From IMG/VR virus record IMGVR_UViG_3300045988_154040: a stretch of DNA of 64,000 nt, one strand, 5' to 3'. This document shows positions 2,072 through 20,735 of this stretch, one piece after another. Both the position numbers and the translations under genes were made by a program. Numbering within the stretch: the stretch's first letter is position 1; every line of letters starts with the position of its first letter. The DNA is from a virus. The notes beneath the pieces were generated by a model that did no database searches, was not told the DNA's origin, and saw nothing but the letters and a program-made list of their open reading frames with translations.

Positions 2072-2812
2072 TTATATCCATGCGTAACTGGATTTATTAC
2101 GTGGTAAATCATATAACCATTGTAAAATTTCTTTTGGTACATCTTCTTTTATCCAGCCATGACCATATTTACACCCACATACAGGACAAGATTTACCTAA
2201 TAATCCTAATTCATTTTCTGAGTAATTTATCCATCCTCTGGTTTTATGGTCTGTATTAGAGTGGCCTAAACAATTTTTCTCTGTATATTCATAACATTCA
2301 CTGTCTGAAAATTCACTGCCATTATAAGATTTTTTCTCAAATGGTAAATTGTAAATTTTTGTTTCTTCCAAAGTAGGAAAAAATGGCTCATGATTTGCTA
2401 AACATTTTAAAGCACGATTTTTTGCTTCGTTTTGTTTTTCTCTGGTTTCTCTAGTAAGTTTATAAGTTTTTATTTCAACTTTTTCACTTGCCATTTTGTC
2501 CCATCCTAATTTTTTCATATGGCTACAATAGGGGCGCATATCGTTTAAATGCCATTCATCCCATATGTCACAAAACTTCTGTAACATTTCAGGAGTCCAT
2601 TCTTTTGTTGGTACTCCTTTTCTTATTTCATCTACACACTGACCGCAACTTCCCCAAGAATCTCCATTTGATTTAGGACCAATTACACCGGTAATAGACA
2701 ATCGTCCATCTTGATATTCGATTTTACAAAACGAATTTACAGGCCGTTCTTTGCCATTGTAAATATATACTTCGTTAGTACATGGGTTAATAACTCTCTT
2801 AAAATTTTTCAT
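2072..2812 (-). CDS. hypothetical Cys/Trp-rich protein (246 aa)
   Basis: Long ORF with several CxxC-like pairs (SCGQC, CPVCGC); no family recognised. Confidence 0.6.
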   Translation of the reverse strand: MKNFKRVINPCTNEVYIYNGKERPVNSFCKIEYQDGRLSITGVIGPKSNGDSWGSCGQCVDEIRKGVPTKEWTPEMLQKFCDIWDEWHLNDMRPYCSHMKKLGWDKMASEKVEIKTYKLTRETREKQNEAKNRALKCLANHEPFFPTLEETKIYNLPFEKKSYNGSEFSDSECYEYTEKNCLGHSNTDHKTRGWINYSENELGLLGKSCPVCGCKYGHGWIKEDVPKEILQWLYDLPRNKSSYAWI

Positions 2813-2958
2813 TTTGATTTTCTCCTTTTCATATATGCGTTTATACGCTTTCTTTTCTCAATGCTAGAAGATATGACTTTACTTCGATATTCAGTTTTGA
2901 ATTAGATTTTTTAGAATGTTGCTTTAGAACTTTGTGTTACTTTGTTGTTGATAAATAC

Positions 2959-2987
2959 ATGATATCATATACATTTCTATATGTCAA
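2959..2987 (-). promoter_or_regulatory. sigma-A-type promoter TTGACA-17 bp-TATCAT (minus strand)
   Basis: Plus-strand tgtcaa at 2982-2987 and atgata at 2959-2964; lies upstream of the 2812 start. Confidence 0.55.
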
Positions 2988-3030
2988 TACTTTTTTTAAA
3001 ATTTATTTTTAAAATTTTTGAGTAAAAGAA

Positions 3031-3084
3031 AAGGGCTAAATATCAGCCCCTTCCACGAAAAAAGGTGGTACACATGCACCACCT
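3031..3084 (-). terminator. tandem rho-independent terminators (minus strand)
   Basis: Stem AGGTGGT/ACCACCT (3063-3084) is followed on the minus strand by a U-run (A6 at 3058-3063). A second hairpin GGGCT/AGCCC lies at 3032-3051. Both are just downstream of the stop at 3095. Confidence 0.6.
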
Positions 3085-3094
3085 ATAAAATTGA

Positions 3095-3382
3095 TTATTG
3101 TACGTTGCTGATTACATCCATGACAATATCATCTGCCGTATTGTCGGGAGTATAATTGTCATGCATTTTTAAGGTGACAGGCTCTCCCGGCAAAAAGTAA
3201 CAGTTGTCCACTGTTACCGTGTCGCCGTCCGCCGTCTGAAACGTGCATACAAGGTCACTATTGCAATCCAAGCAAACCGCCTGTAAAGTATAGCCTTGCG
3301 CCCATGTCTCCATCAATCCTGTTATAATCATGAATCCACCAACAATTCCCAAATTTACCATAAATTTTCTGAATTTTCTCAT
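3095..3382 (-). CDS. small secreted or membrane-anchored protein
   Basis: The N-terminus MRKFRKFMVNLGIVGGFMIITGLM looks like a signal peptide or TM anchor. Confidence 0.6.
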   Translation of the reverse strand: MRKFRKFMVNLGIVGGFMIITGLMETWAQGYTLQAVCLDCNSDLVCTFQTADGDTVTVDNCYFLPGEPVTLKMHDNYTPDNTADDIVMDVISNVQ

Positions 3383-3385
3383 TAC

Positions 3386-3715
3386 TTATTCCTCACTTTC
3401 ATCTTTTACATTTATTGCATTTATATATGCAATATTGGCAGTCTCTAAACTTCGTTGTGCAATCTCATTCAACAATTTTCTGTTTTTTAGTGAAATTAAA
3501 TGTAAATCTAACAATAAGTTAGATATCACATTAAAATTTTGGATATAAGGTTTACATTTTCCATAAATAGTATGTTTATCCTCACCAATTTTCCTGCCAT
3601 TTTGAGATACAATACAAATTACTCTCAAATCTTTTCTGATTTCTGCCAAAAGGCGTTTCTGTAACCAATTGGCAGAAATATTGACATTTTTTCTTTTCAT
3701 GTTGATTTTTTTCAT
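3386..3715 (-). CDS. hypothetical protein
   Basis: 109-aa ORF tightly packed with its neighbours. Confidence 0.5.
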   Translation of the reverse strand: MKKINMKRKNVNISANWLQKRLLAEIRKDLRVICIVSQNGRKIGEDKHTIYGKCKPYIQNFNVISNLLLDLHLISLKNRKLLNEIAQRSLETANIAYINAINVKDESEE

Positions 3716-3728
3716 TATTTATCCTCCA

Positions 3729-3911
3729 TCAATACCCCAACCATGAATATATACTATCTTTTTCTCCATTTATGAATACCTCACCGCCAACAACGGTGAT
3801 AGTATCATAATTATCAGAAAACGCATAGTGATAAGCTTTAATCGTATCATTTTTACAATCAAATGATACACCATGTCGAATTAACAGAAAACTTAACTCT
3901 TTTATAGACAT
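3729..3911 (-). CDS. hypothetical protein
   Basis: 60-aa ORF in the operon context. Confidence 0.45.
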   Translation of the reverse strand: MSIKELSFLLIRHGVSFDCKNDTIKAYHYAFSDNYDTITVVGGEVFINGEKDSIYSWLGY

Positions 3912-3938
3912 TTTCTGAAACCTCCTTTGTCCTCCTTT

Positions 3939-4232
3939 TTATATACCTTTCCACACTATTAAACAGTCGTCCAATGATACCCGCTTACCATATGATATAA
4001 AATAATAATTGCCTGTTATGGTAGTTTTAAGCAACGACTTATGATAGGTTGTAACCTGTTTAAACTCTGGATATCCGTTGTTATTTGTGTCCCACAATGT
4101 AACTTCATGGGATTCTGACCAGTAGATATAATCCTCTATTCCAGATTCAATTCCGTGGATAGATATACCGCTTAAGCCTGTACTGTAAACGGCTTTTACA
4201 TCATGTGTGGTGCAATACTCTTTTTTTGTCAT
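3939..4232 (-). CDS. hypothetical protein
   Basis: 97-aa ORF with GGAGG-like RBS (aggaggtt) upstream. Confidence 0.55.
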   Translation of the reverse strand: MTKKEYCTTHDVKAVYSTGLSGISIHGIESGIEDYIYWSESHEVTLWDTNNNGYPEFKQVTTYHKSLLKTTITGNYYFISYGKRVSLDDCLIVWKGI

Positions 4233-4910
4233 TGTGCTAACCTCCTATATCCTTTTTTTATATTTAGGATACGACAGAACGTCTATACCCTTTTGTATCT
4301 GATAGCGATACTTGACTTGCATATGTACTTGTGTTTTTTGTTGTGTCGTGCTGACCACGGTTATACAATATCATTTACACAATTTCCCGTCAATATGTAA
4401 AAATAACCAAATTACAATTAATTTATTATACATAATCGCCAAAAATAAATAGTCCAAATGTTGCAAAAATCACGGTTAGTAATGACTACTATTACATTTG
4501 TATAAATTAGCACCCACACAATTTCAATTTATTATATATAATCACGTATCAAAAAATGCGCCTAAAAGTTATGCAATATGTATAATTACATATGACTAAC
4601 CATGATTATGCACAAAAAACAGCGTCAAACAAATATAACTTATGTCTATTATTTATATTAGGAACTTGAAAAAGTAATCTGAAAAATCCCTATAAAATCA
4701 GAATTGATTAAATAGTGTCTCGTCCTTATTGCATAATTTAATTCATTTCCCCAAATAGATTTAATATGGCCCAAATCTCGCTACTTTTTAAAAGAATTAT
4801 CTGATAACTTATTGGGCCACTATACAATTCATTTTAAATCGTGTATGAAATTTGAAAAAATGTATATAATTATAAACACAAAACTTAATATTTAAGGAGG
4901 AATAATATTT

Positions 4911-5207
4911 ATGAGTAACAAATATCAGACTATTAGAGAAATTTACATTGACCTTTACATCCGTAATAAAGCTATTGTAAGGGCCAATAAAAAAGAAAAA
5001 CCAGAGGACTTTCCTATTATTAAGGTAAACGGGAAACGGCTTATGCAGTTGTCCAGATTAAATTTTTTAAGGAGGAAAGAAATAGATAATGATTTTTCTA
5101 ATGGTTTGCTAACTGATAAGGGATATGTGGAAGAAATGACTATTTGCCAATATATCAGTTATCAGATAACAAATACGGAACATTCACAAAAAATTTTATT
5201 TGTTTAG
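4911..5207 (+). CDS. hypothetical protein; the only plus-strand gene in the early region
   Basis: Strong RBS AAGGAGG about 10 nt upstream of the ATG. Followed by the long hairpin at 5283-5367. Confidence 0.6.
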   Translation: MSNKYQTIREIYIDLYIRNKAIVRANKKEKPEDFPIIKVNGKRLMQLSRLNFLRRKEIDNDFSNGLLTDKGYVEEMTICQYISYQITNTEHSQKILFV

Positions 5208-5282
5208 TAATTTTTTACTAATAAAATCACGTCTTTCAGATTTTTTGTCTGTCTAGTTTTTTCTTAATGTTTTATTATCTGT

Positions 5283-5367
5283 AAATTGTGTTTAGTGCTT
5301 CCCAAAACGTGCAGTATTTAAAAACAGATTTAGTACTGTACGATTACACAAGCACTAAACACAATTT
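5283..5367. repeat. perfect 18-bp inverted repeat with 49-nt spacer (long hairpin or terminator)
   Basis: AAATTGTGTTTAGTGCTT (5283-5300) pairs with AAGCACTAAACACAATTT (5350-5367). The spacer has further partial self-complementarity (CGTGCAGTAT / AGTACTGTACG). Confidence 0.8.
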
Positions 5368-5880
5368 GCCCCTACAATTTTTATAGTAATTTGTAATGGT
5401 TCAACTGTATATGCATTTAAGATAAAAGCATAATAAAAACCGCCAATGTCTGACAATTATGTAGTATAGAATACTATGTTTAGTAGTTTCGATAGTGATA
5501 ATATAGACTAAAAGGCCGGGAAAGGGCCTTTAAATGCGTTACAAGGCATGTTGACATAACATTGGCAGAGGTTCAATGGCCTATATATAATAATAGATTA
5601 TAAATAAAAGGATGTGATAATGTGTGAGGTTATGTAAACCAATTATTAGCACTATCAATGGGTGAGTGCCAAAAGGTAAACAAATGATAACAATAAATAG
5701 ATATGGATTATGGACAGTGATTTACATTTTGAGATTGGCGATTGTAAATATAGATTCATAATTCATAATAGATGATAGTAAGCAAGTGCTGACTATATGG
5801 AGAGGGCAGAGGTACATATAATATAATATTATATAATATATAATATGAAAATGAAAATAGGAATTATTATCGTTATGTTT

Positions 5881-6252
5881 CATGTGAAATATGCATGAAT
5901 GTGTGATTGGTGGGAGAGCAAGAGAACGTGAGAATATGGATACGAGAGCGTACAACGTGGTTAGCAGAGTGTGTGTGGGTGGATGTGGGAAAACGTGTGG
6001 CAGAGGGTGTAAGGTCGGTGTATATGGATTGTACGTGATTGTAAGATGGATGGAGAGGGAAGGAAGGAGTGGGAGAGAGGATAGACGGAATGTGCAGCGA
6101 GGGTGGGAAATATGGGAAAAGGATTGAGAGGTGAGGAGAAATGGGGAAAATGGAAATGAATGGATAGGGATATTGGGGATGTGGTGAGGGAATGTGAGGG
6201 GAAAGAGTAGGGATATGGTGAGAGTGAGAGGATGAAATGGGAGGTGAGAGAA
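5881..6252. repeat. C-depleted, G-run-rich arm of the mirror-composition locus
   Basis: I count about 17 C in 372 nt, and 6099-6252 (154 nt) has no C at all. It has many GGG/GGGG runs, e.g. 6167-6212 GGGATATTGGGGATGTGGTGAGGGAATGTGAGGGGAAAGAGTAGGG. Confidence 0.9.
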
Positions 6253-6571
6253 CATATATATCGAGGGTTCGCCATTACCCTTATCAATATTTATATATAT
6301 AATGTGACGCATTTGGTTACGAGTGGAACCGGTATCATTCGTATAAAAACCATTAGTATATCTCGATTTTTGAGGTATTTTCATAGGTAAAAATGACAAA
6401 AGCGTCTATAATACATATTATGCACACTTTTTATTCTGATTTCCCGACACTGCGACATGTGGCTTTCCCCCCAGTTTTGGCAATTGTCAGATAATTCACT
6501 CAAACCCGGGGGTACTTTCAGACAATTCGGATATACGATTTTTGAAAAAGGCCATTAGCTGACCAATCACG

Positions 6572-6960
6572 AACTCTCCAACCATCACCCTCCCCATCCC
6601 TCTTACTATTTATTCATCTATCTCCATCCCTCCCTCCATCTCCCTTATATATATTATATAATATATCTCTACCCTCCACCCATCCCTCCCAATCTCCCCT
6701 ATCTCCCTCCCCTATACTTTCCCCTACATTCTCAATTTCCCTCCCCAAACCATCATTTTCTCCTATACTTTCGCACCTTCTTCACCTCAACTTTTCCCGT
6801 CTCGATTGATAACATTCCGAATTTCTCACAATCCCCATTTCATCCCTTTATTTTTAGCCATGCACCTTTCCTAATCTCAACTATTTAATTGACCTTTCAG
6901 CAACCCCAAAAATCAGAAAAAATCTCAAAAAAATTTTTCACACCATCCAAAATTTTAGCT
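6572..6960. repeat. G-depleted, C-run-rich arm of the mirror-composition locus
   Basis: I count about 12 G in 389 nt, and 6572-6772 (201 nt) has no G. C3-4 runs are dense, e.g. 6671-6724 ACCCTCCACCCATCCCTCCCAATCTCCCCTATCTCCCTCCCCTATACTTTCCCC. Confidence 0.9.
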
Positions 6961-7128
6961 CGCTACACCCCATTCTGATTTGAGCAGATTGTGCCTGAAA
7001 TACACCCTGTTACAACCTCATATACGGCATATCTGACCGTTTTCTGTCTTATCGTGACCAATCCTCCATTTCTCATATTTGAACGCTTCTACTCTCTTGT
7101 ACTCGTTCATATTTTTTAAAAATTAAAT

Positions 7129-7161
7129 TTAAAAAAGAGAACCGCTGATTTCGATTCTCTT
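7129..7161 (-). terminator. rho-independent terminator ending the 15.2->7.2 kb minus-strand operon
   Basis: Stem AAGAGAA/TTCTCTT (7135-7161) with a U-run on the minus strand (A6 at 7131-7136). Confidence 0.65.
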
Positions 7162-7224
7162 TTAAGAAGAAATAGTTATAAAAAATGGTAAGGTATACTA
7201 TCATTTTTCTTTGAATCTTTTCTA

Positions 7225-7782
7225 TTATAATTTATCAGTAGAAGTGTAACCGTTTTCTCTGTCCCACACTTTTGTGTAGTGGTTGAACACGCCGATATAT
7301 GCCGCACAATTGGTAGTATAGATTGCATCAATATCAAAACTATCATCTTCATCTTCATTATCTCGACAAGTCAAATCACTTTTGTAGGTGTTTAAATCCA
7401 TCCATCCATAACTATTTAATCTTCCGTTTATTCCAATGCGCCGTAGCACATTAGTACTGGAAATTGGGGTATTTTTCATATCTGTATTAAGCATTACTAA
7501 ATACATACTTTCGCTTTTTGTCTCCACAATCATTCCTGACTTGAGGAAATCTTTGGGGGTGATATCTTCTTCTTTTTCTTTTGGAGGGGCTGTATCTGTG
7601 AACTGAATATGCTCTACTCTGGGGATTATCATTTTTCCGCTGGGGAGTTTTACCAAGGCAACAGGATATTGGCCCAATGAATCTTCATCATAATTGGTGC
7701 TAAAGCCGCAAAACTCGCCGTCTTTGAAAAGTACGTATCCTAATTTTTCATCCCAATATTTACCACAACATTTACCTTCCAT
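7225..7782 (-). CDS. hypothetical protein; C-terminal domain paralogous to 9200-9616
   Basis: Shared blocks: DFLKSGMIVE..YLV / NDLKTGMFVK..YFV, WMDLNTYKSDLT / WLSLANYNEDLT, YTKVWDRE / YVKIWDRD. Confidence 0.6.
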   Translation of the reverse strand: MEGKCCGKYWDEKLGYVLFKDGEFCGFSTNYDEDSLGQYPVALVKLPSGKMIIPRVEHIQFTDTAPPKEKEEDITPKDFLKSGMIVETKSESMYLVMLNTDMKNTPISSTNVLRRIGINGRLNSYGWMDLNTYKSDLTCRDNEDEDDSFDIDAIYTTNCAAYIGVFNHYTKVWDRENGYTSTDKL

Positions 7783-7793
7783 ATCTTTCCTCC

Positions 7794-8138
7794 TTAAAAT
7801 GAAAATGGGTCTTTATTTTCCAAGGATTCCACTTCTTCCCATGCATCTTCATTTTCTGGTGGGATTGATGGGATTTTCTTATTAGGGTTCTTTGATTTTT
7901 GGGGAGTTGGGACTTCATAGCGGTCAGCATAAATAACCAATTCATTGATTACTTCTTTTCTGCCATCTACAGTGAAACCAACTATATTTAGCAATTCTGC
8001 CGCCAATTCATCATGGCGCACAGGATAATCTGCAAATACCACTTTCAGATTTTTTCCTTTGATTGCATCATCATTAAGTATGTTTCTTAAAACATTTGTT
8101 GTTAAAAACACTTTCTTAGGTTGGGAATTTTTCATCAT
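7794..8138 (-). CDS. hypothetical protein; paralog of 9882-10205
   Basis: MMKNSQPKKVFLTTNVLRNILNDD...ENKDPFSF aligns end to end with MMKNPQPQPNKAFLTTDVLRSILNDD...ENKDPFKDPFLF. Confidence 0.65.
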   Translation of the reverse strand: MMKNSQPKKVFLTTNVLRNILNDDAIKGKNLKVVFADYPVRHDELAAELLNIVGFTVDGRKEVINELVIYADRYEVPTPQKSKNPNKKIPSIPPENEDAWEEVESLENKDPFSF

Positions 8139-8238
8139 GAATTTTTCTCCTTCTTGCGAAATTTGTGATTGATAGTTATGGCCCTCATATACTGGCTGAA
8201 TATCTCTAATTCATCTGCTGCTTGTAATTCCTTTTAAA

Positions 8239-8523
8239 TTAATTTTTACTTGCTAACCCAATTTTTTTCATTTTTTTCATAAATAACTTCATTTCATAAT
8301 ACGTAAGTCCAACACAGGTATTGCCAATTTTCTTATTATCCATCAAATTTTTATCATATGACTGAATAATATGTTTACCTGATTTTTTATATGATAAATC
8401 AACACATTGTGTATACTTATATTTTTTATCATCTCTTTCGTAAGAAGCTCCGTATTCATTTTCTGATACTTTTGTAAATCCAATTTCTTTTAACCTATCA
8501 TCAATACTCTTAAATAATTTCAT
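8239..8523 (-). CDS. hypothetical protein
   Basis: 94-aa ORF; no motif recognised. Confidence 0.55.
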   Translation of the reverse strand: MKLFKSIDDRLKEIGFTKVSENEYGASYERDDKKYKYTQCVDLSYKKSGKHIIQSYDKNLMDNKKIGNTCVGLTYYEMKLFMKKMKKIGLASKN

Positions 8524-8744
8524 TATATATTCCTCTTTCTTTCTCTAATTATAAAATTCTTCAAAATTACTCTTTAAATACTTCTTTTGCTGTCTATAAA
8601 ATCGTTATGGGAAATATAAATTGAAACTGGAAGAACTTTGCCATTTTCACCCAAAAATCCATATCCCAAAGTCGCTCTTATCGCATCAGTTTTTTTATAA
8701 AAATCCCAAAGTTGTTAAATATAAAAAATAAATAAAGGAGAACT

Positions 8745-8891
8745 ATGAATAATTATCAGTACGTAAACATTATAATAAATATAAATTGTAAGGAAGGGTG
8801 TAAACGTACTGCTAAAGAGGGTATAAATCCTTTATCTATTTTAATAAATATGGCTGTTGGCATTATAACAATAGTTAAATTTATTAGATAA
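8745..8891 (+). CDS. small hydrophobic-tailed peptide (48 aa) on the opposite strand to all neighbours
   Basis: Hand-translated MNNYQYVNIIININCKEGCKRTAKEGINPLSILINMAVGIITIVKFIR. RBS AAAGGAG at 8735-8741. A weak hairpin plus T-run follows at about 8913-8935. Confidence 0.35.
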   Translation: MNNYQYVNIIININCKEGCKRTAKEGINPLSILINMAVGIITIVKFIR

Positions 8892-8975
8892 AGTATAACC
8901 ATTATTTTTTTCAAGTCCCCTGTGTGTCATCACCGGAGACTTTTTATATTATGTCCACATCAATTATTTATTATT

Positions 8976-9164
8976 TTATGTTAATATAAATATCCATAAA
9001 ATAATTATGGTTATTATCCAAATTATTTTCATTTCTTTTTTATAAGTATCATTTTTATTAAATATTATCCATATAGATGTAAATATACAAATAATAGTAG
9101 CAATTAATTGAAGCATAAATAAAAATATTGTCATAAATTTCCTTTCTAATATTTCTATATGCAT
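8976..9164 (-). CDS. small two-TM membrane protein
   Basis: Two hydrophobic stretches: FLFMLQLIATIICIFTSIWIIF and IIWIITIIILWIFIL. Confidence 0.5.
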   Translation of the reverse strand: MHIEILERKFMTIFLFMLQLIATIICIFTSIWIIFNKNDTYKKEMKIIWIITIIILWIFILT

Positions 9165-9199
9165 TCCCCTAAATTATATTGGGGGGGATTAAAATATTT

Positions 9200-9616
9200 T
9201 TATAAACGGCGGCGAGATATACTATAATCTCTAAAATTTCCGTGTTCATCAATAATATGTTTCTTTAATAATTGTTTTTTTACTATTTCGTTTTTGGTTT
9301 TATCTCTATCCCATATTTTTACATATGCATCAATATCACCAATTTCTACTGCAAATACAGCACGATACACTTCTTCGATGTTAAAAATATTTTCGGAGCT
9401 ATATTGAGTATGAAATGTTAAATCTTCATTATAATTAGCTAAGCTTAACCACTCATGTGTTCCTGATAAGCCATCATACTTTATATTTGTAAAATTTATT
9501 AATATATCTTTAGCAGTAGTAGTTGTTTCATTCATTCCTGTATCACGAAGTACAAAATAAATTCTACCATCTGTAATTTTTACAAACATACCTGTTTTTA
9601 AATCATTCTTCGTCAT
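9200..9616 (-). CDS. hypothetical protein (domain paralog of the 7225-7782 C-terminus)
   Basis: See the shared sequence blocks listed for 7225-7782. Confidence 0.6.
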   Translation of the reverse strand: MTKNDLKTGMFVKITDGRIYFVLRDTGMNETTTTAKDILINFTNIKYDGLSGTHEWLSLANYNEDLTFHTQYSSENIFNIEEVYRAVFAVEIGDIDAYVKIWDRDKTKNEIVKKQLLKKHIIDEHGNFRDYSISRRRL

Positions 9617-9863
9617 TGTTCTTTCTCCAATTTTCTGTGTTCCAACATATATTACATGGAATTTCTTGTTCTACACAATCATTTATTTTTTCTAAAATTA
9701 TAGAAAATTCGTCAGGGCAATATGCATTGATGATTATATTCTTTTGTTCTTCTTCTGTTAAAGAATTCCAGTTTTCTTCATTCCTAACATTTAGCATTTT
9801 ATTTTTTTCAAGTATAGTCTCTTTACAATTTTGTAACACATAATCTATAACTTTAATTTCCAT
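9603..9863 (-). CDS. hypothetical Cys-containing protein
   Basis: 86-aa ORF whose stop overlaps the start of the next gene. Confidence 0.5.
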   Translation of the reverse strand: MEIKVIDYVLQNCKETILEKNKMLNVRNEENWNSLTEEEQKNIIINAYCPDEFSIILEKINDCVEQEIPCNICWNTENWRKNNDEE

Positions 9864-9881
9864 ATTTTATTCTCCTTTAAA

Positions 9882-10205
9882 TTAAAATAAAAATGGGTCT
9901 TTAAAAGGGTCTTTATTTTCTTGTGATTCTGTTTCTTCGTCCAAAATATCATTTGTTTTCTGTAAAGTTGGAGTTTCATAACAATTAGTATAGATAACTA
10001 ATTCTTTAATTTCTTCTTTCTTACCTTCTACAGTAAAACCAGTTATATTTAATAATTCTACTGCTAATTCATCATGATATACAGGATAATTAACAAATAC
10101 TACTTTGTAATTATTTTCTTTAACTGTATCATCATTAAGTATACTCCTGAGAACATCTGTTGTTAAAAATGCTTTATTAGGCTGAGGCTGAGGATTTTTC
10201 ATCAT
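9882..10205 (-). CDS. hypothetical protein; paralog of 7794-8138
   Basis: Full-length similarity to 7794-8138. Confidence 0.65.
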   Translation of the reverse strand: MMKNPQPQPNKAFLTTDVLRSILNDDTVKENNYKVVFVNYPVYHDELAVELLNITGFTVEGKKEEIKELVIYTNCYETPTLQKTNDILDEETESQENKDPFKDPFLF

Positions 10206-10216
10206 GATTTTTCTCC

Positions 10217-10405
10217 TTAATGATTAGCAAAACATGCATTACGCTGAGCATTGTTAAGTTTAAAGTAAATACATTTAGGTTCACTTTTAAAATTCATAGC
10301 ATATGCTTTTGTAATAATAGAATTAATTTCTTTTGTAAATTTTTCAAAATCATCTCTATAAGCACAAACATTTCTATGAACACAATTTTCACAAGCGTCA
10401 CTCAT
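10217..10405 (-). CDS. small Cys-rich protein
   Basis: MSDACENCVHRNVCAYRDD...; 62 aa. Confidence 0.5.
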   Translation of the reverse strand: MSDACENCVHRNVCAYRDDFEKFTKEINSIITKAYAMNFKSEPKCIYFKLNNAQRNACFANH

Positions 10406-10419
10406 AACCGTTCCTCCTT

Positions 10420-10656
10420 TTAAGCTGTTGTATAACTGTTGTACAGCTTTATAGCATCTTTTAATTTAATGAATGGGGTTTCAACCACTTTTAAGGGGCC
10501 GTTCTCCACAAAAGATTCTTTAATGACCACATAAGAAATCTTGTCGAAATTGGGAATCTGAGGATTGATACAGCCAAACAACATTACCCTCATTTCACTA
10601 TCCTTGTACTCACTCATGATAAACCTCTTAAATAATTCTTCTCTTACTTTATTCAT
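10420..10656 (-). CDS. hypothetical protein
   Basis: 78-aa ORF in the operon. Confidence 0.5.
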   Translation of the reverse strand: MNKVREELFKRFIMSEYKDSEMRVMLFGCINPQIPNFDKISYVVIKESFVENGPLKVVETPFIKLKDAIKLYNSYTTA

Positions 10657-10670
10657 TTCTCATTCTCCTT

Positions 10671-10955
10671 TTATAATATTTTTATTATTTTTATGTTGTA
10701 ATGAGAATCTAAATAATCTTTAAGAATATTTAAATCATCATTTTCATTTTCTCCACTTATCCTAAATTCTATTGTATCTTTTAATAATTCAGTGTTGCAG
10801 TTAAATTCAGTAATGCCTAATAAACTTTTGGCGTTTACTTCTTTTCTTATAGTTTTATTAACCAATCTTACATCACTGTTTAAAGTACAGGTGCAAGAAA
10901 CAACAGATGGAAAATTATGGGGATAACTTTTAAAACAAAATGAAAATATTTTCAT
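10671..10955 (-). CDS. HPr/Crh-like phosphocarrier-fold protein (divergent)
   Basis: VNAKSLLG matches the HPr Ser46 loop VNLKSIMG. SGENENDDLNILKDYL matches SGADENDALNALEETM. His13 (YPHNFPS vs GIHARPA) lies exactly 31 residues before the Ser, as His15-Ser46 does in B. subtilis HPr. Arg17 is replaced by Phe. Confidence 0.6.
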   Translation of the reverse strand: MKIFSFCFKSYPHNFPSVVSCTCTLNSDVRLVNKTIRKEVNAKSLLGITEFNCNTELLKDTIEFRISGENENDDLNILKDYLDSHYNIKIIKIL

Positions 10956-10973
10956 AATATTTTTCTTCTTTCT

Positions 10974-11255
10974 TTACAAGAACAGCCAGGAGTACAGGGA
11001 GAAAAATGGATATAGGATAACCCTGACGATTGATAGGATACAAGTTAGTACAAACAAGAACAAGAGACTTAACACGTCAAAGGGTAACATCCACCAATTT
11101 GTATAAACATTTACCTTGTGCTTTGTTTTACTATGCCACCAGCATTTTAAATCGAATAACTGATAAATAAATAGCTGATTAAACCAATTTCCTTTCACCG
11201 CTAATTCTTTATTACAGATTTTACAAACTCCTTGTCTTTTCTTTATCATTTCCAT
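10974..11255 (-). CDS. membrane protein with N-terminal CxxC
   Basis: GVCKICNKE is followed by the hydrophobic C-terminal half WWMLPFDVLSLLFLFVLTCILSIVRVILYPFF. Confidence 0.5.
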   Translation of the reverse strand: MEMIKKRQGVCKICNKELAVKGNWFNQLFIYQLFDLKCWWHSKTKHKVNVYTNWWMLPFDVLSLLFLFVLTCILSIVRVILYPFFSLYSWLFL

Positions 11256-11482
11256 ATATTTTCTTTTTTCTCCTTTTCTTTATCTTCTTTATATCGTTTA
11301 TAGAATATTTCCATTTGTTTCTCAATTTCTGGGTCGTTTAATTCTTCTTCTGGCATTTGAGCACGACTTCCACCTACAGCACAAGGAGATATTTTATATA
11401 TTTCATGAAATAAATTGTAATCTGACATAACTGTACAATCTCCCATAGAATCTTCAAATCTACAACCAGAACCGTAGCACAT
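11246..11482 (-). CDS. small Cys-rich protein with a Lys/Glu-rich tail
   Basis: MCYGSGCRFEDSMGDC...; 78 aa. Confidence 0.5.
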   Translation of the reverse strand: MCYGSGCRFEDSMGDCTVMSDYNLFHEIYKISPCAVGGSRAQMPEEELNDPEIEKQMEIFYKRYKEDKEKEKKENIWK

Positions 11483-11561
11483 AATTTCTCCTTTGCTTTA
11501 TATGTACTTTGCCGATATATCAAATCAATTATAAATATATCGGTAAGTTGATGTTACATAG

Positions 11562-11590
11562 ACTATATCATATAAAATAATATATGTCAA
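11562..11590 (-). promoter_or_regulatory. sigma-A-type promoter TTGACA-17 bp-TATAGT (minus strand)
   Basis: Plus-strand tgtcaa at 11585-11590 and actata at 11562-11567. Confidence 0.55.
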
Positions 11591-11715
11591 TAGTTTTTGC
11601 AATTATTTTTTTATATATATTTTTGTATCACAAACTGGACAAATAATACATTCTGTAGATTCGTACATACTACATTGAACAGTTTTTAATCTTCCAAATT
11701 TTAATATTGCTTATG

Positions 11716-12234
11716 TCAGTTTTGATTATCTGGTAATGGCATCCAGGCAATTGGGTTATAAGTATCCCATCCATCAAAAAATATTTTCTGTCCTGATGAT
11801 GTACTGATATAAAACGATACCGTCCTCATACCATCAGGCAATAAAATCAAGAGTTTTTCATCCTCCCGCATAGCCCCACTGGTTTTTGGTGTCCGCTCAT
11901 CTACCGGAATCCATCTATAGTTATCCATTGCCTCAAGCGCTTCTATTGCCATGATATTACGCTCTACAGTTCCATCTTCTTTTCCTGTCAAAAGCGCATT
12001 ATCTATCTCAAATCCTTCAATTGCATCTCTGACCGTCATAATCTTTCCTTCCTCCGGTTCTCCCGGAAATGCTAATTTCCTGTTTCTGAATAACTGTTCG
12101 CATTCTACTGGTGTTAATTTGCACTGACAACATTGGCAACTCTTACCTGTTGCCCCACACCTATAATCCTCGTCATACTCGTTCCCGCTACGAAATGGGA
12201 TAACTACAACATAAGGACAGTTATAAAAATCCAT
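11716..12234 (-). CDS. Cys-rich N-terminal domain fused to a DUF551-like C-terminal domain
   Basis: The C-terminus WIPVDERTPK...LLILLPDG...NPIAWMPLPD has the DUF551 pattern (W.pv...P....vl......v.hWmPlP), recalled from memory. Confidence 0.55.
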   Translation of the reverse strand: MDFYNCPYVVVIPFRSGNEYDEDYRCGATGKSCQCCQCKLTPVECEQLFRNRKLAFPGEPEEGKIMTVRDAIEGFEIDNALLTGKEDGTVERNIMAIEALEAMDNYRWIPVDERTPKTSGAMREDEKLLILLPDGMRTVSFYISTSSGQKIFFDGWDTYNPIAWMPLPDNQN

Positions 12235-12264
12235 GCATTACCTTCTTTCTTAATTGTCAGTTCG

Positions 12265-12513
12265 TTACTTTCTTTTCCAATATTTACAAACTGATTTTCC
12301 AGTGATACTTTTTATTTGCTCTCTGAAATCTCCTCCAAAAGGCAAATCATAATCATCTTCTAATTCTGAAGAGTGTTTACATACAGGATAAACATATGAT
12401 GGTAGTTCACATCTTCCATATTCACCATATTGTCCATTAAAACAATCCCATTCTTTAAACAATTTACATGATTCACAATTTTTATTGCATTTCTTTTTCT
12501 GTCTACTATTCAT
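12265..12513 (-). CDS. small Cys-rich protein
   Basis: KKCNKNCESCKLFKEWDC...; 82 aa. Confidence 0.55.
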   Translation of the reverse strand: MNSRQKKKCNKNCESCKLFKEWDCFNGQYGEYGRCELPSYVYPVCKHSSELEDDYDLPFGGDFREQIKSITGKSVCKYWKRK

Positions 12514-12532
12514 TCTCCATCTTCTCCAAACC

Positions 12533-12691
12533 TTAATTTACTGGTTCCCAATACCAGTCAACCCGTTGCATGACAATTTCTTTAATATCCTCTTCTATTT
12601 CTTCGTCTGTCGCCCCGTCCGGATATTCCAGCTCATCCTCTACATCAGTACCAGCATATCCATAATTAGCTTTATATTTTACTTTTCTCAT
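12533..12691 (-). CDS. small acidic protein (52 aa)
   Basis: Hand-translated MRKVKYKANYGYAGTDVEDELEYPDGATDEEIEEDIKEIVMQRVDWYWEPVN. It replaces the implausible plus-strand ORF 12485-12715. Confidence 0.45.
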   Translation of the reverse strand: MRKVKYKANYGYAGTDVEDELEYPDGATDEEIEEDIKEIVMQRVDWYWEPVN

Positions 12692-12711
12692 TTTTCATCT
12701 CCATTAAAATA

Positions 12712-12876
12712 CTAATTTTCCTCATTATGCGATGTGCAGTATTCGCACCATTTGCAAGCCTCTATTGGCTCATCATCACCGGCACGACTAAATCCCATAC
12801 ATTTACCATTACTGTCCCGTCCCGGCTCCCCGCATCGCCTAATATACTTACAGTTGTCTGGTGTCCTCTTTGGCAT
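12712..12876 (-). CDS. small Cys-rich protein (54 aa)
   Basis: Hand-translated MPKRTPDNCKYIRRCGEPGRDSNGKCMGFSRAGDDEPIEACKWCEYCTSHNEEN with RBS GGAGGTG upstream. It replaces plus-strand ORF 12727-12933. Confidence 0.45.
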   Translation of the reverse strand: MPKRTPDNCKYIRRCGEPGRDSNGKCMGFSRAGDDEPIEACKWCEYCTSHNEEN

Positions 12877-12995
12877 TTTACACCTCCAAAATTCCTAAAT
12901 AATATTGAAAATAAAATTATCTATCAATGTTGAAATATTATTGCAAAAATTGTAAAAACAAATTATAATAATGCAATTTTTAATTACATATTTTA

Positions 12996-13712
12996 TTATT
13001 TACTTTCAATTGTTATAAAATCACTTATTTCCTGTGCGTTTGGTAAATGTGCAAAAAAATTAGCTAAATCTCTTAATTCTTTTTGTTTATGATTACGTCT
13101 GGCAAAATAGTAAGCTCTGGCAGTTTGAGCAGAACAAGTATAAGTGGCAGTAAAATTAAAACTTTGAGGTAAATCTTGTATAATTTGTCTAAATATATTT
13201 TCTTTTTCTTCTGAATCAGCAGGTAAAGAATTATATTTTAGAATAAGATTGTTTAAATGTAAAATAGTTGCATCACGAAACGGATTATTAATTATTTTTC
13301 CATTTTTATCATCATAACTAAAATCATTTATAGTTAAAGGTCTACTTGTAATTTTGTGCATACGACTGGAAGAATTTTTTACAGTAGCTACTTTATAGGT
13401 ATCAATATCCCACCATGCCGTCATAGGAGCTGTAAGTAAAAAAGAAAGTTGTATTTGTCTAAACCATTTTCCATGGTCAGTTCCAGCTAATATTAAATTC
13501 TCTGCTAATTTTTTATCTTTAGGGCCTATGATGATTCTTAATATTTTATTATGACTATTAAAATCATTAAGCGGAATTGTAAATATTTCTCCATTATCAT
13601 AATTGTAAGTTAAACAATAAGAATCTGATAAAAGATTACTATTTTTAGGTAATCTCATACCATATAAAGCATTTGCTAATCCTGAAATTTCCATTTTTTC
13701 AATTTTTATCAT
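12996..13712 (-). CDS. ThyX-like (flavin-dependent thymidylate synthase fold) protein lacking the RHR signature
   Basis: FRQIQLSFLLTAPMTAWWDIDTYKVATVKNSSSRMH aligns without gaps to T. maritima ThyX [36 protein letters not shown] (recalled). The AP, S and R positions are kept, but RHR is replaced by TYK. Confidence 0.45.
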   Translation of the reverse strand: MIKIEKMEISGLANALYGMRLPKNSNLLSDSYCLTYNYDNGEIFTIPLNDFNSHNKILRIIIGPKDKKLAENLILAGTDHGKWFRQIQLSFLLTAPMTAWWDIDTYKVATVKNSSSRMHKITSRPLTINDFSYDDKNGKIINNPFRDATILHLNNLILKYNSLPADSEEKENIFRQIIQDLPQSFNFTATYTCSAQTARAYYFARRNHKQKELRDLANFFAHLPNAQEISDFITIESK

Positions 13713-13714
13713 TA

Positions 13715-14629
13715 TTATTCCTCCAATTTTCCCATTAATTTTAAATTTTCTTTAATACGAAATGGACATGAAAGATTAATTGTAGCGTCAATAATCTTTT
13801 TAAGTTCTGTTACTTGGGATAACATTTCACTTCGTAATAATTTAGATTGTATCCTATAGTTTAATTCTTTATATATATTTTCTTTATTGGTGGATAGCCC
13901 ACTTTTATTTAAAGTTAGATGATAAACTTTATAATAACCTTCCCACCCAGGGAAATTTTCTCTTAATTTTTGTGAAGCAATTTTTTTAAATAAATAAATA
14001 CGATTTTCATTTCTGTAAATTTCACTCATTTTAGTGAATCCTAATTCTTTTAAAGTTTCTTCTTCAAGTCTAATAATTTTGGATTCTTCTAGTGATTCCA
14101 TAGGAATTGTATAGGTATCTGTATAAGTATTATAGCTTTTATAAATTCTATACCCTTGACGGCATTTAATCAAAGATTTAGATTCTAAACTCTTTAGTAT
14201 ATCTTTTACAAGTCTGCTTAAAAGATTATAAGATTTAATCATATAGTCTTTTAATTCCATGGGGTCACTATTCAAAATACTAGAAGAATCATCAATGTTA
14301 TAACGACAATAGCCATAGTCACTATTTACAATTCCACATGACGTAAGAATTTCCATCATGGAAAGACATTGATTATGTCCTTCTTGTTGAGATAATAGAT
14401 TGCTTAATATGGCTTCTAGGAGTTTTTGATACATTCCTCTTAATTCTTTTTCGTTTTTTTCATCTTCTGTATATTGTTTTTTAAAATTATAGAATCCATT
14501 TTTGACAGTAAATTCATAATCTTTTTTTAATATATTTATTTGGCTTCGCTGTTTTGAACCACTACAAGGAACCCAATTAAAGATAGCACAAATATCACGA
14601 TAACGATAATTTTTGCCATACTCAATCAT
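13715..14629 (-). CDS. hypothetical protein (304 aa)
   Basis: Long ORF between the ThyX-like and kinase-like genes; no motif recognised. Confidence 0.6.
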   Translation of the reverse strand: MIEYGKNYRYRDICAIFNWVPCSGSKQRSQINILKKDYEFTVKNGFYNFKKQYTEDEKNEKELRGMYQKLLEAILSNLLSQQEGHNQCLSMMEILTSCGIVNSDYGYCRYNIDDSSSILNSDPMELKDYMIKSYNLLSRLVKDILKSLESKSLIKCRQGYRIYKSYNTYTDTYTIPMESLEESKIIRLEEETLKELGFTKMSEIYRNENRIYLFKKIASQKLRENFPGWEGYYKVYHLTLNKSGLSTNKENIYKELNYRIQSKLLRSEMLSQVTELKKIIDATINLSCPFRIKENLKLMGKLEE

Positions 14630-15218
14630 AAATATATTTACCTATCTGCTGTTCAAACAAATGATGATAAAATAATTTTGCTTTATCCTCTAAAGATTCA
14701 AGGTCTTTGTTATTGTATACTACAAAATCATAGCGATAATTCTCTACGTCTTTATCGGCATGATTAGAGGTAACAGTGGGAACATTGGGATTTTTTACAA
14801 GTAAAGTATGACAAGTATTAGAACCAAAATAATTTACATATCTTTGAATTTCTTTTGGTTCGCGTGAATGAACAAAAATAAGTCCATCACCATTATTAAA
14901 ATCATTAATATTTTTTATTGCCGTATTAATGTTTTTTATAGTTTCTTTGTAAGGTACATCATCCCAGCTAGAAAGTAAATCTTTTAAATCACTTAAAAAT
15001 TTACGATTACTTTCAATTTTTGAACCATCCCATCCAGCTATAATAGCTAGACTTTTAACTAAATTAACAGAATCAATATTACACATAATTCGTAGGGAAA
15101 TAAGGGTATTTTCATCTATTGCTGAATTATTTGAATCATATGCTAATTTTAAACATAATTTAGCAAAAGTATCTTTACCTTTTCCTCCACTACCATTGAT
15201 GATGATAACATGATACAT
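14622..15218 (-). CDS. P-loop NTPase, phage dNMP-kinase-like
   Basis: The N-terminal Walker A IIINGSGGKGKDTF resembles the GxSGxGKDT loop of phage deoxynucleotide monophosphate kinases. Confidence 0.5.
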   Translation of the reverse strand: MYHVIIINGSGGKGKDTFAKLCLKLAYDSNNSAIDENTLISLRIMCNIDSVNLVKSLAIIAGWDGSKIESNRKFLSDLKDLLSSWDDVPYKETIKNINTAIKNINDFNNGDGLIFVHSREPKEIQRYVNYFGSNTCHTLLVKNPNVPTVTSNHADKDVENYRYDFVVYNNKDLESLEDKAKLFYHHLFEQQIGKYIYD

Positions 15219-15249
15219 ATTTAACCTCCTTTTAGTCTATTTTATTTTA

Positions 15250-15278
15250 ATAATAACAGAATATAATATAAATGTCAA
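15250..15278 (-). promoter_or_regulatory. sigma-A-type promoter TTGACA-17 bp-TATTAT (minus strand)
   Basis: Plus-strand tgtcaa at 15273-15278 and ataata at 15250-15255; lies upstream of the 15218 start. Confidence 0.5.
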
Positions 15279-15436
15279 TATGTAATTTTTTATTATATAT
15301 TTTATATTATATGTATATTAATTAAATATATGTATAATAATTATATAATATTATAAAATATATAAATATAATATAATTAATAATAATTTATATTTAATTA
15401 ATATTGTTATTACTAATTCCCCAAAATATTTGTATT

Positions 15437-15475
15437 GTTATTTTAGTTTTTTTGCAAGCAAAAAAACCAAATAAC
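15437..15475. repeat. imperfect 18-19 bp hairpin
   Basis: GTTATTTTAGTTTTTTTGC-AA-GCAAAAAAACCAAATAAC. Confidence 0.75.
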
Positions 15476-15492
15476 GAAAACAAATATTTTTT

Positions 15493-15720
15493 CAATTGAT
15501 ATAATTAATATTTTTTATAAACATAAATTCACAAATTTCTTGGTTTTATATATAATAATAGTTATCTATAAACAATTACTAATATAAATTTATATAACTC
15601 TTTCCACTTCGTTACAAGAGTTATATAAATTTCTAAAGTAATTGTAATTATATCTAATTATTATTATATATAAAACAGAAATTTATAAATTTATATAAAA
15701 AATATTAATTATATCAATTG
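15493..15720. repeat. about 228-bp imperfect palindrome in the A/T-only divergent intergenic region
   Basis: Outer arms CAATTGATATAATTAATATTTTTT (15493-15516) and its exact reverse complement (15697-15720). Inner arms AAATTTATATAACTCTT (15586-15602) / AAGAGTTATATAAATTT (15616-15632). The sequence between the arms is largely mirrored. Confidence 0.85.
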
Positions 15721-15968
15721 GATAGGGGTATTTTTTATATAATAATTATATAATTAATAATATATAATATATATTATTTATATTATTAAATATATTATAT
15801 ATTATTATATTTTATAATAATATTTATATATTATATTTTATATATAGTATATAGTATTACCTCCGAATTTTTTCTTATACCGTTATTTTTTAAAAAATTT
15901 TTTATGTAATAAAAACAATTAATAAAATTAGTATAAAATGTCTTTATTTTTTAATATTAAAATATATC

Positions 15969-15997
15969 TTGACAAAATTGTATATATAATATATAAT
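15969..15997 (+). promoter_or_regulatory. consensus sigma-A promoter TTGACA-17 bp-TATAAT for the RNAP gene
   Basis: TTGACA at 15969-15974 and TATAAT at 15992-15997, 36 nt upstream of the ATG at 16034. Confidence 0.7.
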
Positions 15998-16033
15998 ACA
16001 ATCATCACAAAAAAATATTAAGAAAGGGACAAT

Positions 16034-19000: not shown

Positions 19001-19448
19001 TGCACAAATGCCAGTTAATTGTTCTCCATCTACAATGAATCGTTTATGTTGGTATATTGAATCTGAGTTTAATGGATATGTCACTCAATTAAAGAATCAA
19101 AATTTTGACTATACTTTTTTAAAGAATAATAAAGTTGTTCGATATCCAAAAGCAAAAAAAGAAGAAATTGAAAAATTAGAAAAAGAATATGTACGCAGAA
19201 TTAAAAACTTTAAAATAATTGCCAAAGAAAATAATTTATCTGCTGAAGAAGCTAATAAAAAGACAGAAGCATTACAACAAGAATTTAGAGATGAAGCAAT
19301 AAAAATTTGTTCTAATAAATGGCAATTGATGAATATAGTATTAGATTTATGCTATGGAAAGAATAAGAACAAATATTTTTGTTGGGCTGTTATTGGAGAT
19401 TTAATAATTGAAAAATTAAAAGAAGATGGAGAGAAAGAAAATGAATAA
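16034..19448 (+). CDS. YonO-like single-subunit (two-barrel) RNA polymerase in three exons: join(16034..17536,17970..18251,18732..19448), 833 aa
   Basis: Exon 1 ends ...AMNGCDFD and exon 2 begins GDAIYS.... The restored NGCDFDGD resembles the NADFDGD/DxDGD metal loop. The size is close to SPbeta YonO (recalled). HU-like genes lie downstream, as yonN lies next to yonO. Confidence 0.6.
17537..17969 (+). mobile_element. group I intron (no ORF) in the RNAP gene
   Basis: R-like TTAAACGACTATCCC at 17773-17787 and S-like AAGATATAGTC at 17904-17914 give P7 GACTAT/ATAGTC. P1 is GAT|TA (17534-17538) with TAGTC (17545-17549), including U.G at the splice site. The intron ends in G17969, and the junction restores the reading frame. 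Confidence 0.75.
18252..18731 (+). mobile_element. group I intron with a degenerate homing-endonuclease remnant in the RNAP gene
   Basis: P1 is AATTGGAT (18244-18251) with GTCCAATT (18268-18275). R-like TTAAACGACTA at 18566-18576 and S-like TGATATAGTC at 18683-18692. It shares the block GGAATTGTAG(G/T)AAATGACAATTTGAG...GCTAACAGGGAAA with intron 1. A 40-aa ORF at 18424-18546 (MKRKDLTNNIYGCLKVLSI...) looks like the N-terminus of a homing endonuclease. Confidence 0.7.
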
Positions 19449-20381: not shown

Positions 20382-20735
20382 ATGGCAAAGAAAGTAATCA
20401 AGGTAACTGACATGACTTCCGCAGAACTGGTAAAGGCTATTGCGGCAAAATCTGGTGCATCTCAGGTGCAGACAAAGGCGGTTCTGAGCGCTATGGGCGA
20501 AGTTTGTAGAGAGTGTGCCGCCGCAGGTAAGAAGTTCAATCTGTTTGGCCTGGGAAAGATGGGATTTGCTCAGATTAATGGTAAGCCAGAGAGAAATGGT
20601 GTTATCAATCCTAGAACCGGAGAGAAGGGCCTGCTTCCTGAAACTCCTTCTTATACCAAGCCTGTATTTAAGGTTTCTAAGAGTTTAGTGGATGAAATTA
20701 AGGAATCTACCAAGGGCCGCCCATTTGTAAAGTAA
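20382..20735 (+). CDS. HU/IHF-family DNA-binding protein
   Basis: ELVKAIAAKSGASQVQTKAVLSAMGEV...FNLFGLGKMGF...RNGVINPRTGEKGLLPETPSYTKPVFKVSKSL follows the HU pattern, including the RNPxTGE arm. Local GC is visibly higher than in the surrounding sequence. Confidence 0.85.
   Translation: MAKKVIKVTDMTSAELVKAIAAKSGASQVQTKAVLSAMGEVCRECAAAGKKFNLFGLGKMGFAQINGKPERNGVINPRTGEKGLLPETPSYTKPVFKVSKSLVDEIKESTKGRPFVK

Follow-up and report, generated by a model that had tools for sequence, protein, structure and literature searches.

A 1.1-kb locus with mirrored strand-asymmetric arms as a possible packaging-initiation region of Enterocloster siphophages

Introduction

Pac sites, at which headful packaging is initiated, are to our knowledge known for a handful of model phages, in every one of which the site is short, depends on a specific sequence and is linked to the gene of the small terminase. 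Known pac sites are about 20–270 bp long and, as in P22, SPP1 and P1, lie in or next to terS; SPP1 uses the sequence boxes a, b and c, and P1 uses hexamers. Here we report a 1.1-kb non-coding locus at positions 5881–6960 of a 64,000-nt stretch of viral DNA (IMG/VR record IMGVR_UViG_3300045988_154040; the whole stretch is called the window below), in which a core of ordinary composition is flanked by one arm almost without C and another almost without G. We give a probability of about one half to the reading that this locus serves a headful-packaging Enterocloster siphophage as its packaging-initiation (pac) region. This reading is ranked first because it is the only one backed by a physical measurement: a packaging end mapped in the related phage PMBT24 falls at the edge of the structure, whose flanks appear to be kept by selection on composition and polarity alone.

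Other described systems are also close. At the concatemer junction of phages T7 and T3, the short-repeat arrays SRR and SRL flank the terminal repeat, and formation of the ends depends on transcription; we know of no description of mirror polarity for T7. Priming of the R-loop type is used by ColE1 RNA II, by oriF and oriG of phage T4 and by the mitochondrial CSBII.

The locus shares with the headful pac regions of SPP1 (pacL-pacC-pacR) and P1 a one-sided fixed end in a permuted genome, as reported for PMBT24 in its genome paper (PMC11035940), a cut region with accessory DNA on both sides, and the character of a unique non-coding cis site. Unlike those regions, it is 1.1 kb long, lies about 15 kb from the terminase genes, and has flanks that are defined by the exclusion of one base on one strand while their sequence drifts freely. 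The T7/T3 junction is similar in that a unique segment of a few hundred bp carrying a DNA end is bracketed by low-complexity, strand-biased arrays of a few hundred bp, and in that the phage encodes its own RNA polymerase near the packaging genes. However, the T7 arrays are recognisable 7-bp repeats whereas these arms have no repeat unit, and T7 has direct terminal repeats with two ends whereas the PMBT24 paper gives a single end, as is typical of headful packaging; on both counts the locus departs from a junction of the T7 type. R-loop regions (class-switch regions, ColE1 RNA II, CSBII, T4 oriF/oriG, herpesvirus oriLyt) resemble the arms in their non-template strand, which is rich in G (about 44% here), poor in C and dotted with clusters of G over hundreds of nucleotides, and in that the tract borders on a DNA end or a site of priming. 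Here, in contrast, a core is approached by such a tract from either side, an arrangement that is not known to have been described, and C is excluded much more strictly than the formation of R-loops is known to require.

Results and discussion

The window belongs to a group of Enterocloster bolteae siphophages (PMBT24, CB473P1, CB473P2, CB473P3, CB457P1 and CB457P2) with genomes of about 100 kb. The group encodes a YonO-type single-subunit RNA polymerase, which is labelled 'RNA-dependent RNA polymerase' in PMBT24. Across the locus, the GC skew in 200-nt windows peaks at +0.88 and then drops to -0.95. The inner 154 nt of the left arm and the inner 201 nt of the right arm are the longest C-free and the longest G-free run, respectively, of the whole window (Table 1), and the exclusion of C from the left arm relaxes with distance outward from the core. 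A pattern of 98 non-C, 400 arbitrary and 98 non-G positions has 57 overlapping matches at the locus, whereas 100 dinucleotide shuffles gave no match. No other segment of the window, and none elsewhere in the complete genome of PMBT24, has an absolute skew of at least 0.7 (200-nt windows). That the locus is the only such feature in both sequences, is non-coding and has no Rfam or tRNA match speaks for a role in packaging.

A first-pass annotation of the window had already described the mirrored strand skew around a mixed core, and its counts agree with ours to within one base. It had also remarked on the lack of a regular tandem period, and neither tandem-repeat nor spectral analysis found a period in the locus. 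With neither a periodicity of about 10.5 bp nor any other in the arms, a phased bending signal was rejected. No 5–8-mer is enriched in the arms, and only GGGA, GAGA and ATGG are mildly over-represented; arrays of Chi sites guarding the ends were rejected because of this lack and because such arrays need no exclusion of C. Since one strand lacks C or G, the arms cannot hold a palindromic site that includes both bases.

The locus is non-coding, as first proposed, because its minus strand is open in all three frames at once, its 227-codon open frame is reduced to 134–160 codons in relatives, and the relatives differ there by indels of 1, 2, 5, 7 and 14 nt. Of the 2.7-kb nearly gene-free gap said to surround it, the part that is truly free of genes measures about 2.0 kb (5208–7224); the open reading frame (ORF) at 4911–5207 has a strong Shine-Dalgarno (SD) sequence and is annotated in most relatives.

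Copies of the locus were compared among six phage isolates, one IMG/VR contig and eight metagenome contigs (n = 15). All 15 show the skew flip. They split into two clades with an identity of about 60% between them, and tests of co-variation are limited to these two independent clades. Between clades, the left arm is 54% and the right arm 59–61% identical, values that appear close to random for a three-letter composition, as against 79–84% in the flanks. Nevertheless, the left arm holds only 11–20 C per ~370 nt in the six phages and the right arm only 8–16 G, despite right-arm lengths of 337–476 nt (CB457P2 lacks 6628–6679, including the A/T block of that arm). The arms have thus diverged and yet have all kept their C-poor or G-poor makeup, which argues for a constraint on composition rather than on sequence.

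Within the clade of this phage the core is 96–98% identical, and within a clade the arms are about 4-fold more variable than the core (in clade A, 142 variants over 371 sites of the left arm vs 31 over 318 sites of the core), and conserved blocks of the core persist across clades. Counted per site, the clade A left arm has about 4 times fewer T>C changes (6 on 72 T) than changes from A to G (37 on 116 A), and the right arm has the mirror deficit in gains of its excluded base, of about 2-fold. Judged from these counts, gains of the excluded base are selected against, and it is composition and polarity, not the sequence of the arms, that are conserved. The Thomasclavelia phage TR-TP1, whose large terminase (TerL) is 34% identical, has no such locus, and none of 57 loci around YonO-type polymerase genes (1.05 Mb) is equally extreme in skew.

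The physical end was mapped in PMBT24. According to its genome paper, a TruSeq library of CsCl-purified virions gave one significant PhageTerm peak (tau > 0.1) on a single strand, the phage was classed as pac-type with a circularly permuted, terminally redundant genome, and the pac site was chosen as the start of the genome map, i.e. base 1 of the GenBank record (PMC11035940). At this boundary the record ends with ...GAATGTATCT and begins with CATATTTTGAGGGTTCGCC, and the boundary aligns to 6254|6255 of the window, the junction of left arm and core. The C-free run of PMBT24 spans 99746–99960 (215 nt) and the record ends at 99962, 2 nt beyond the run; in both clades the C-free run is closed by a first C, the end follows 1 nt past this C, and the invariant GAGGG motif GAGGGTTCGCC stands 8 nt further on. 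It is very unlikely to be a coincidence that the mapped end falls on the compositional boundary of the sole structure of this kind in a 100-kb genome. 'Genome termini or a packaging signal' was among the roles suggested by the first-pass annotation, and the alignment of the PMBT24 terminus to the inner edge of the left arm lends support to it.

The core contains several conserved elements (Table 1). The motif GAGGGTTCGCCATTACCCT carries one substitution each in CB457P2 and CB457P1 and is otherwise invariant. Folded as an RNA hairpin, the central palindrome reaches only -5.7 to -13.1 kcal/mol; it was rejected as a bidirectional terminator because this hairpin is too weak, and it is more likely a dimer-binding site. 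In the block that follows, TTTTGGCAATTGTCAGA ... GGGGGTACTTTCAGACAA(T/G)TCGGATATACGA is invariant save for one position and includes the inverted repeat. The 10-mer GGTACTTTCA from this block recurs beside G-poor tracts in distant relatives.

Table 1. Coordinates of the features at and around the locus (window positions; base counts refer to the plus strand).
Feature	Position	Strand	Description	Remarks
GGAGAGGGCAGAGG word and A/T-only block	5795..5848	+	the word, then 34 bp of A/T only with many TATAAT	outer edge of left arm
Left arm	5881..6252	+	G-rich, C-poor; inner 6099–6252 C-free	base counts: 372 nt, A119 C16 G162 T75; G 44%
Core	6253..6571		ordinary composition; blocks kept in both clades	319 bp, A96 C63 G55 T105
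Predicted packaged-DNA terminus (pac cut)	6254..6255			homology with PMBT24
Near-invariant motif	6263..6281	+	GAGGGTTCGCCATTACCCT	5-bp stem AGGGT/ACCCT
33-bp palindrome	6400..6432		AAAAGnGTnCATAATAnnTATTATGnACnCTTTTT, around CATAATAnnTATTATG	both clades; paired positions invariant
Invariant block	6475..6540		TTTTGGCAATTGTCAGAnAATTCAC ... GGGGGTACTTTCAGACAATTCGGATATACGA	inverted repeat AATTGTCAGA / TCAGACAATT inside
Right arm	6572..6960	+	C-rich, G-poor; inner 6572–6772 G-free; holds A/T-only block 6646–6668	389 nt, A101 C144 G11 T133; C 37%
Conserved non-coding flank	6961..7130		contains CCCCATTCTGATTTGAGCAGATTGTG	83–97% identity
Intrinsic terminator	7133..7163	-	12-bp stem and T-run	ends leftward operon just outside right arm

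If the locus is a pac region, terminase and accessory DNA-binding proteins would recognise the conserved elements of the core, and terminase would make the series-initiating cut where the strand-asymmetric tract stops. Candidate accessory proteins are two HU/IHF-like proteins and a 302-aa protein encoded just upstream of TerL. The two HU/IHF-family genes (Pfam Bac_DNA_binding; 20382–20735 and 20795–21295) stand beside the TerL gene, and the gene of the 302-aa protein (21454–22362; phrog_3314, with weak zinc-ribbon / HNH-like matches in the N-terminal part) lies directly upstream of it and is conserved as a TerL neighbour in SPbeta-like and Thomasclavelia phages. The arms, whose role we infer, would act via composition and not via sequence. 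Each of their single strands is nearly free of secondary structure and of G/C-containing palindromes, and the G-rich strand runs 5'->3' toward the cut on both sides, so that a cut followed by any 5'->3' resection would expose G-rich, C-free 3' strands at both new ends. Alternatively, inward G-rich transcripts might form R-loops that end at the edge of the core and mark the cut site.

The same packaging machinery accompanies the locus, as TerL is 91–98.6% identical and its 302-aa upstream partner 93–99% identical across the phages that bear it; both are distantly related to those of SPbeta-like phages. The TerL gene of the window (22377–25200) is split into at least three ORFs (22377–23018, 23204–23962 and 24421–25200) and contains a group I intron (Rfam RF00028, 96 bits, hit at 23951–24281), and in the CB phages an intron-associated endonuclease lies within the gene. 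A missing co-variation of TerL with the locus was rejected, since the low TerL identity given for CB457P1 in the PMBT24 paper is an artefact of the intron-split gene (98.6% by tblastn).

Several points weigh against a pac region. The terminus was measured in PMBT24, a clade B relative and thus of the other locus clade than this phage, and it rests on a single PhageTerm statement; for the present phage, the fixed one-strand end of virion DNA that marks headful pac is given by homology with PMBT24 only. The direction of packaging is ambiguous. Table S3 of the PMBT24 paper is reverse-complement to version 2 of the record (promoter 1 at 1012–1041 corresponds to the reverse complement of ~98926 in OQ326496.2), and the protein accessions descend along version 2; together these indicate that an earlier version of the record was flipped, so that the 'reverse strand' of the paper cannot be assigned to one side of the locus. 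TerL lies about 15 kb away (15032–16930 in PMBT24, 22377–25200 in the window), no small terminase (TerS) was recognised by a family match among the genes upstream of TerL, and the adjacency to a small terminase gene that classically characterises pac is lacking. Although the core holds invariant palindromes, the arms have no periodicity and no enriched, repeated 5–8-mer fit for a TerS box. The cut lies at one arm only, the other arm being 320 bp off, and therefore a single cut leaves the mirror symmetry unexplained. Finally, in the distant relatives described below, the shared word GGGGGTACTTTCA and G-poor tracts sit in an origin-like neighbourhood.

A more far-reaching proposal, which we hold tentatively and regard as less probable than not by a wide measure, is that the arms are a new cis element coded by composition, in which mirrored one-base exclusion around a core defines or handles a DNA end. 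Two routes are conceivable. Converging G-rich R-loops could have ends that mark the terminase cut or the start of replication, or the arms could be telomere-like, with structure-free G-rich 3' strands serving end protection or strand invasion. As in telomeres, a G-rich, C-free strand runs 5'->3' toward the DNA end on both sides of the break; unlike telomeres, the locus has no repeat unit and no telomerase, and because the genome is circularly permuted this end would be present in the first headful only. Searches of the literature turned up no phage pac site described as having strand-asymmetric arms, in agreement with the first-pass annotation, which knew of no described phage element with this architecture, and the passages of the PMBT24 paper that were consulted do not mention the arms (PMC11035940). 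If the arms make or protect the end, they would represent a new principle for recognising or handling the ends of phage DNA, and a local skew flip would be a simple signature of packaging starts in uncultured gut phages.

Distant relatives were found via the polymerase gene (polymerase 24–41% identical). In three of them (L036, 1470–1812; L039, 676–1105; L046, ~2170–2640), a G-poor, A/C-rich non-coding tract of 300–400 nt is directly followed by GGGGGTACTTTCA, the same word as at window position 6511, which occurs in two copies in L046. It leads into small winged helix-turn-helix (wHTH) genes, whose resemblance to HTH_36 stays below the Pfam cut-off, together with palindromic repeats and stretches of A/T only. 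In a fourth relative, L064 (2250–3720), the flip is weaker: a G/T-rich tract and a C-rich tract stand on the two sides of a core that contains hairpins, in this order, and the C-rich arm resembles the right arm of the window (CCCCATCCTCCATCCCCTC). Under the composition-coded proposal, the flip of L064 and the single G-poor tracts beside GGGGGTACTTTCA would be versions of a single system shared by large phages of gut Firmicutes that have a YonO-type RNA polymerase.

These relatives also bear on replication. A replication origin primed by R-loops is an unlikely alternative: transcription from the promoter-like A/T blocks would pass through the arms toward the core and yield G-rich, C-free RNA, persistent RNA:DNA hybrids would end where G-richness stops, the 3' ends of the RNA would prime DNA synthesis, and the fixed virion end would be the start of a rolling-circle tail that feeds the first headful. 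Under a QmRLFS-type rule (a G-cluster initiation zone followed by at least 100 nt with at least 40% G on the non-template strand), both arms qualify as R-loop-type segments; 6101–6276 (+) and 6724–6545 (-) are the only ones in the 64 kb, and both point into the core. TATAAT-rich A/T blocks stand before or within the arms, the C-free tract stops where the terminus lies, and the distant relatives pair GGGGGTACTTTCA and a G-poor tract with the wHTH genes, palindromic repeats and A/T-only stretches mentioned above, all of them usual components of origins. R-loop-using phage origins are established for T4 (review PMC12599619), which also counts for this alternative.

However, no initiator gene adjoins the locus in this phage group, and an origin of the iteron or DNA-unwinding-element type is not what the locus shows: there are no iteron arrays, only one inverted pair (AATTGTCAGA / TCAGACAATT), A/T blocks of 23–34 bp, no initiator-like neighbour and one DnaA-box-like word with 1 mismatch. 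One fork would meet the minus-strand genes at 7225–15218 head-on over 7–8 kb, CB457P2 lacks the A/T block of the right arm, the sign of the skew (+ then -) is of the terminus and not of the origin type, and promoter matches are at consensus level only, none being conserved in both clades. A far better candidate for an origin is an intergenic region of almost pure A/T 9 kb away (15240–15880, ~640 bp), where the minus- and plus-strand gene blocks diverge and from which all genes would be co-directional with the forks. It has C-free runs at 15277–15412 and 15716–15859 and neither G nor C over 15729–15846, and the records CB473P3, CB473P1, CB457P2 and CB457P1 and the IMG/VR contigs L024–L026 start or end inside it. 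By its sequence, this region is a candidate replication origin or unwinding element, and also an assembly breakpoint.

Lower still in probability, and quite doubtful, is a function in transcription, as a divergent pair of Rho-dependent terminators (rut sites) laid out like tL1/tR1 of lambda, or as a source of non-coding RNAs. Read outward, the arms would give C-rich, G-free and structure-free RNA, an ideal substrate for the loading of Rho, which would confine transcripts that start in or cross the core. The longest stretches of the window with at least 30% C and at most 5% G are indeed 6552–6899 (+) and 5995–6271 (-), and as RNA of ~380 nt the C-rich strands reach folding energies of no more than -5.3 and -6.1 kcal/mol, while those of the G-rich strands are -34 and -39 kcal/mol, compared with -72.7 ± 12.8 kcal/mol in background windows of 380 nt. 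C-rich, G-poor and unstructured RNA of about 80 nt or more is what a rut site looks like, and the distant relatives, with G-poor A/C-rich tracts that have no G-rich partner, share with the window one strand without G. Yet each arm is 5 to 6 times as long as a typical rut site, and the arms stand back to back around a core without a gene or recognisable promoter. No conserved outward-facing promoter was found in the core, incoming transcripts would be stopped only after crossing it, which is odd for an insulator, and the right-hand operon is already closed by an intrinsic terminator. Rfam and tRNA scans of the locus gave no match, and the DNA end at the edge of the arm would be left unexplained.

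That the arms have no function of their own and are a by-product of mutation and repair at a recurrent double-strand break is improbable. Under this view, the 3'-ended strands would be exposed as single strands by each round of resection and be open to damage, and errors would be made when DNA close to the break is resynthesised; the polarity and outward decay of the depletion are as expected from resection at a central break, and the higher variability of the arms relative to the core would fit as well. But deamination of cytosine gives C to T, and T is depleted in the left arm (20% vs 34% genome-wide) while G is raised (44% vs 17%). In addition, the 319-bp core beside the break keeps an ordinary composition, the same arm composition is found in two clades that have diverged almost to randomness, and gains of the forbidden base are 2–4-fold under-represented per site, which points to selection and so contradicts a by-product.

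Structures formed by the arms themselves, namely pairing into a giant imperfect hairpin, cruciform or long double-stranded RNA, SD/anti-SD sponges, or arrays of G-quadruplexes and i-motifs, are already largely refuted and have very little probability left. The arms are complementary in composition, with a large predicted pairing energy of about -240 kcal/mol, but this is no better than in composition-matched shuffles (z = -1.0, -2.9, -1.3 and +0.3) or in arms from the other clade. Their best inverted local alignment scores 42–45, against 29 ± 4 after shuffling, and is reached by 2–4 of 300 shuffles; the first-pass annotation had taken the arms for diverged inverted copies, a view that this marginal alignment and the composition-level pairing do not sustain. 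G4Hunter windows reach 1.6–2.1, but the left arm has 16 runs of three or more G where composition predicts 17.3 ± 2.6, the right arm is mildly enriched (20 vs 12.2 expected), and each arm has 0–2 canonical quadruplex motifs (loops of at most 7 nt). Quadruplex potential thus follows as a by-product of composition, contrary to the specific quadruplex design proposed earlier. Many GGAGG and CCTCC words had been announced as well; CCTCC is indeed frequent in the right arm (7 vs 2.4 expected), but GGAGG occurs once in the left arm (vs 4.2 expected), which does not support an SD or anti-SD sponge.

Neighbouring features

An A/T-only block had been placed in each arm. The one at 6646–6668 does lie inside the right arm, but the one at 5815–5848 is outside the left arm as delimited here; the region 5795..5848 holds an A/T tandem ATATAAT x4.3 and a promoter-like match, TGGAGA-18-TATAAT. 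The block is identical in the window, PMBT24 and CB457P1 and differs in CB473P3, CB473P1 and CB457P2. AGAGG...TATAAT was rejected as a phage-specific promoter, being confined to the locus and not a genome-wide signal. The left part of the locus has three plus-strand copies of GGCAGAGG (5564, 5805 and 5999), all inside 440 bp, out of five in the whole window (0.56 expected), and two of the copies at the locus are followed by a TATATAAT-type A/T block.

A 30-codon minus-strand ORF in the flank to the right of the locus is interrupted in PMBT24, as the alignment shows. The intrinsic terminator beyond this flank (-13.2 kcal/mol, z = -3.9) insulates the locus from the operon that runs toward it, a point in favour of the pac reading. 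On the right-hand side of the locus in PMBT24, the genes (2180–9617, minus strand) run toward it and end at this terminator, and the replication/early block on the other side (98189 down to 52094, minus strand) runs away from it. Just left of the locus, window 5280–5372 can fold into a conserved hairpin of great stability (-41 kcal/mol, z = -10.6), which encloses a second, inner hairpin. The clade differences in its outer stem are of the G-C to G-U type on the plus strand, which hints at a rightward-transcribed RNA element.

The locus is also an assembly trap. Five of the eight low-coverage metagenome contigs that carry the core (L016, L018, L019, L022 and L023) end inside the 1.1 kb, at different positions, which could reflect assembly or coverage trouble due to the extreme composition or a depletion of reads near a physical end.

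The YonO-type polymerase gene (16034–20178) appears to be interrupted: residues 1–501 are encoded at 16034–17539, and the remaining coding sequence seems to start again only at ~18750, after about 1.2 kb of inserted DNA. In the contigs L025 and L026, the 831-aa polymerase likewise spans 3.4–3.6 kb. A phage-encoded sigma-70-family factor (Sigma70_r2, r4) lies at 404–991, 5 kb to the left of the locus, and the annotation of PMBT24 includes a second, SigK-like sigma factor elsewhere in the genome.

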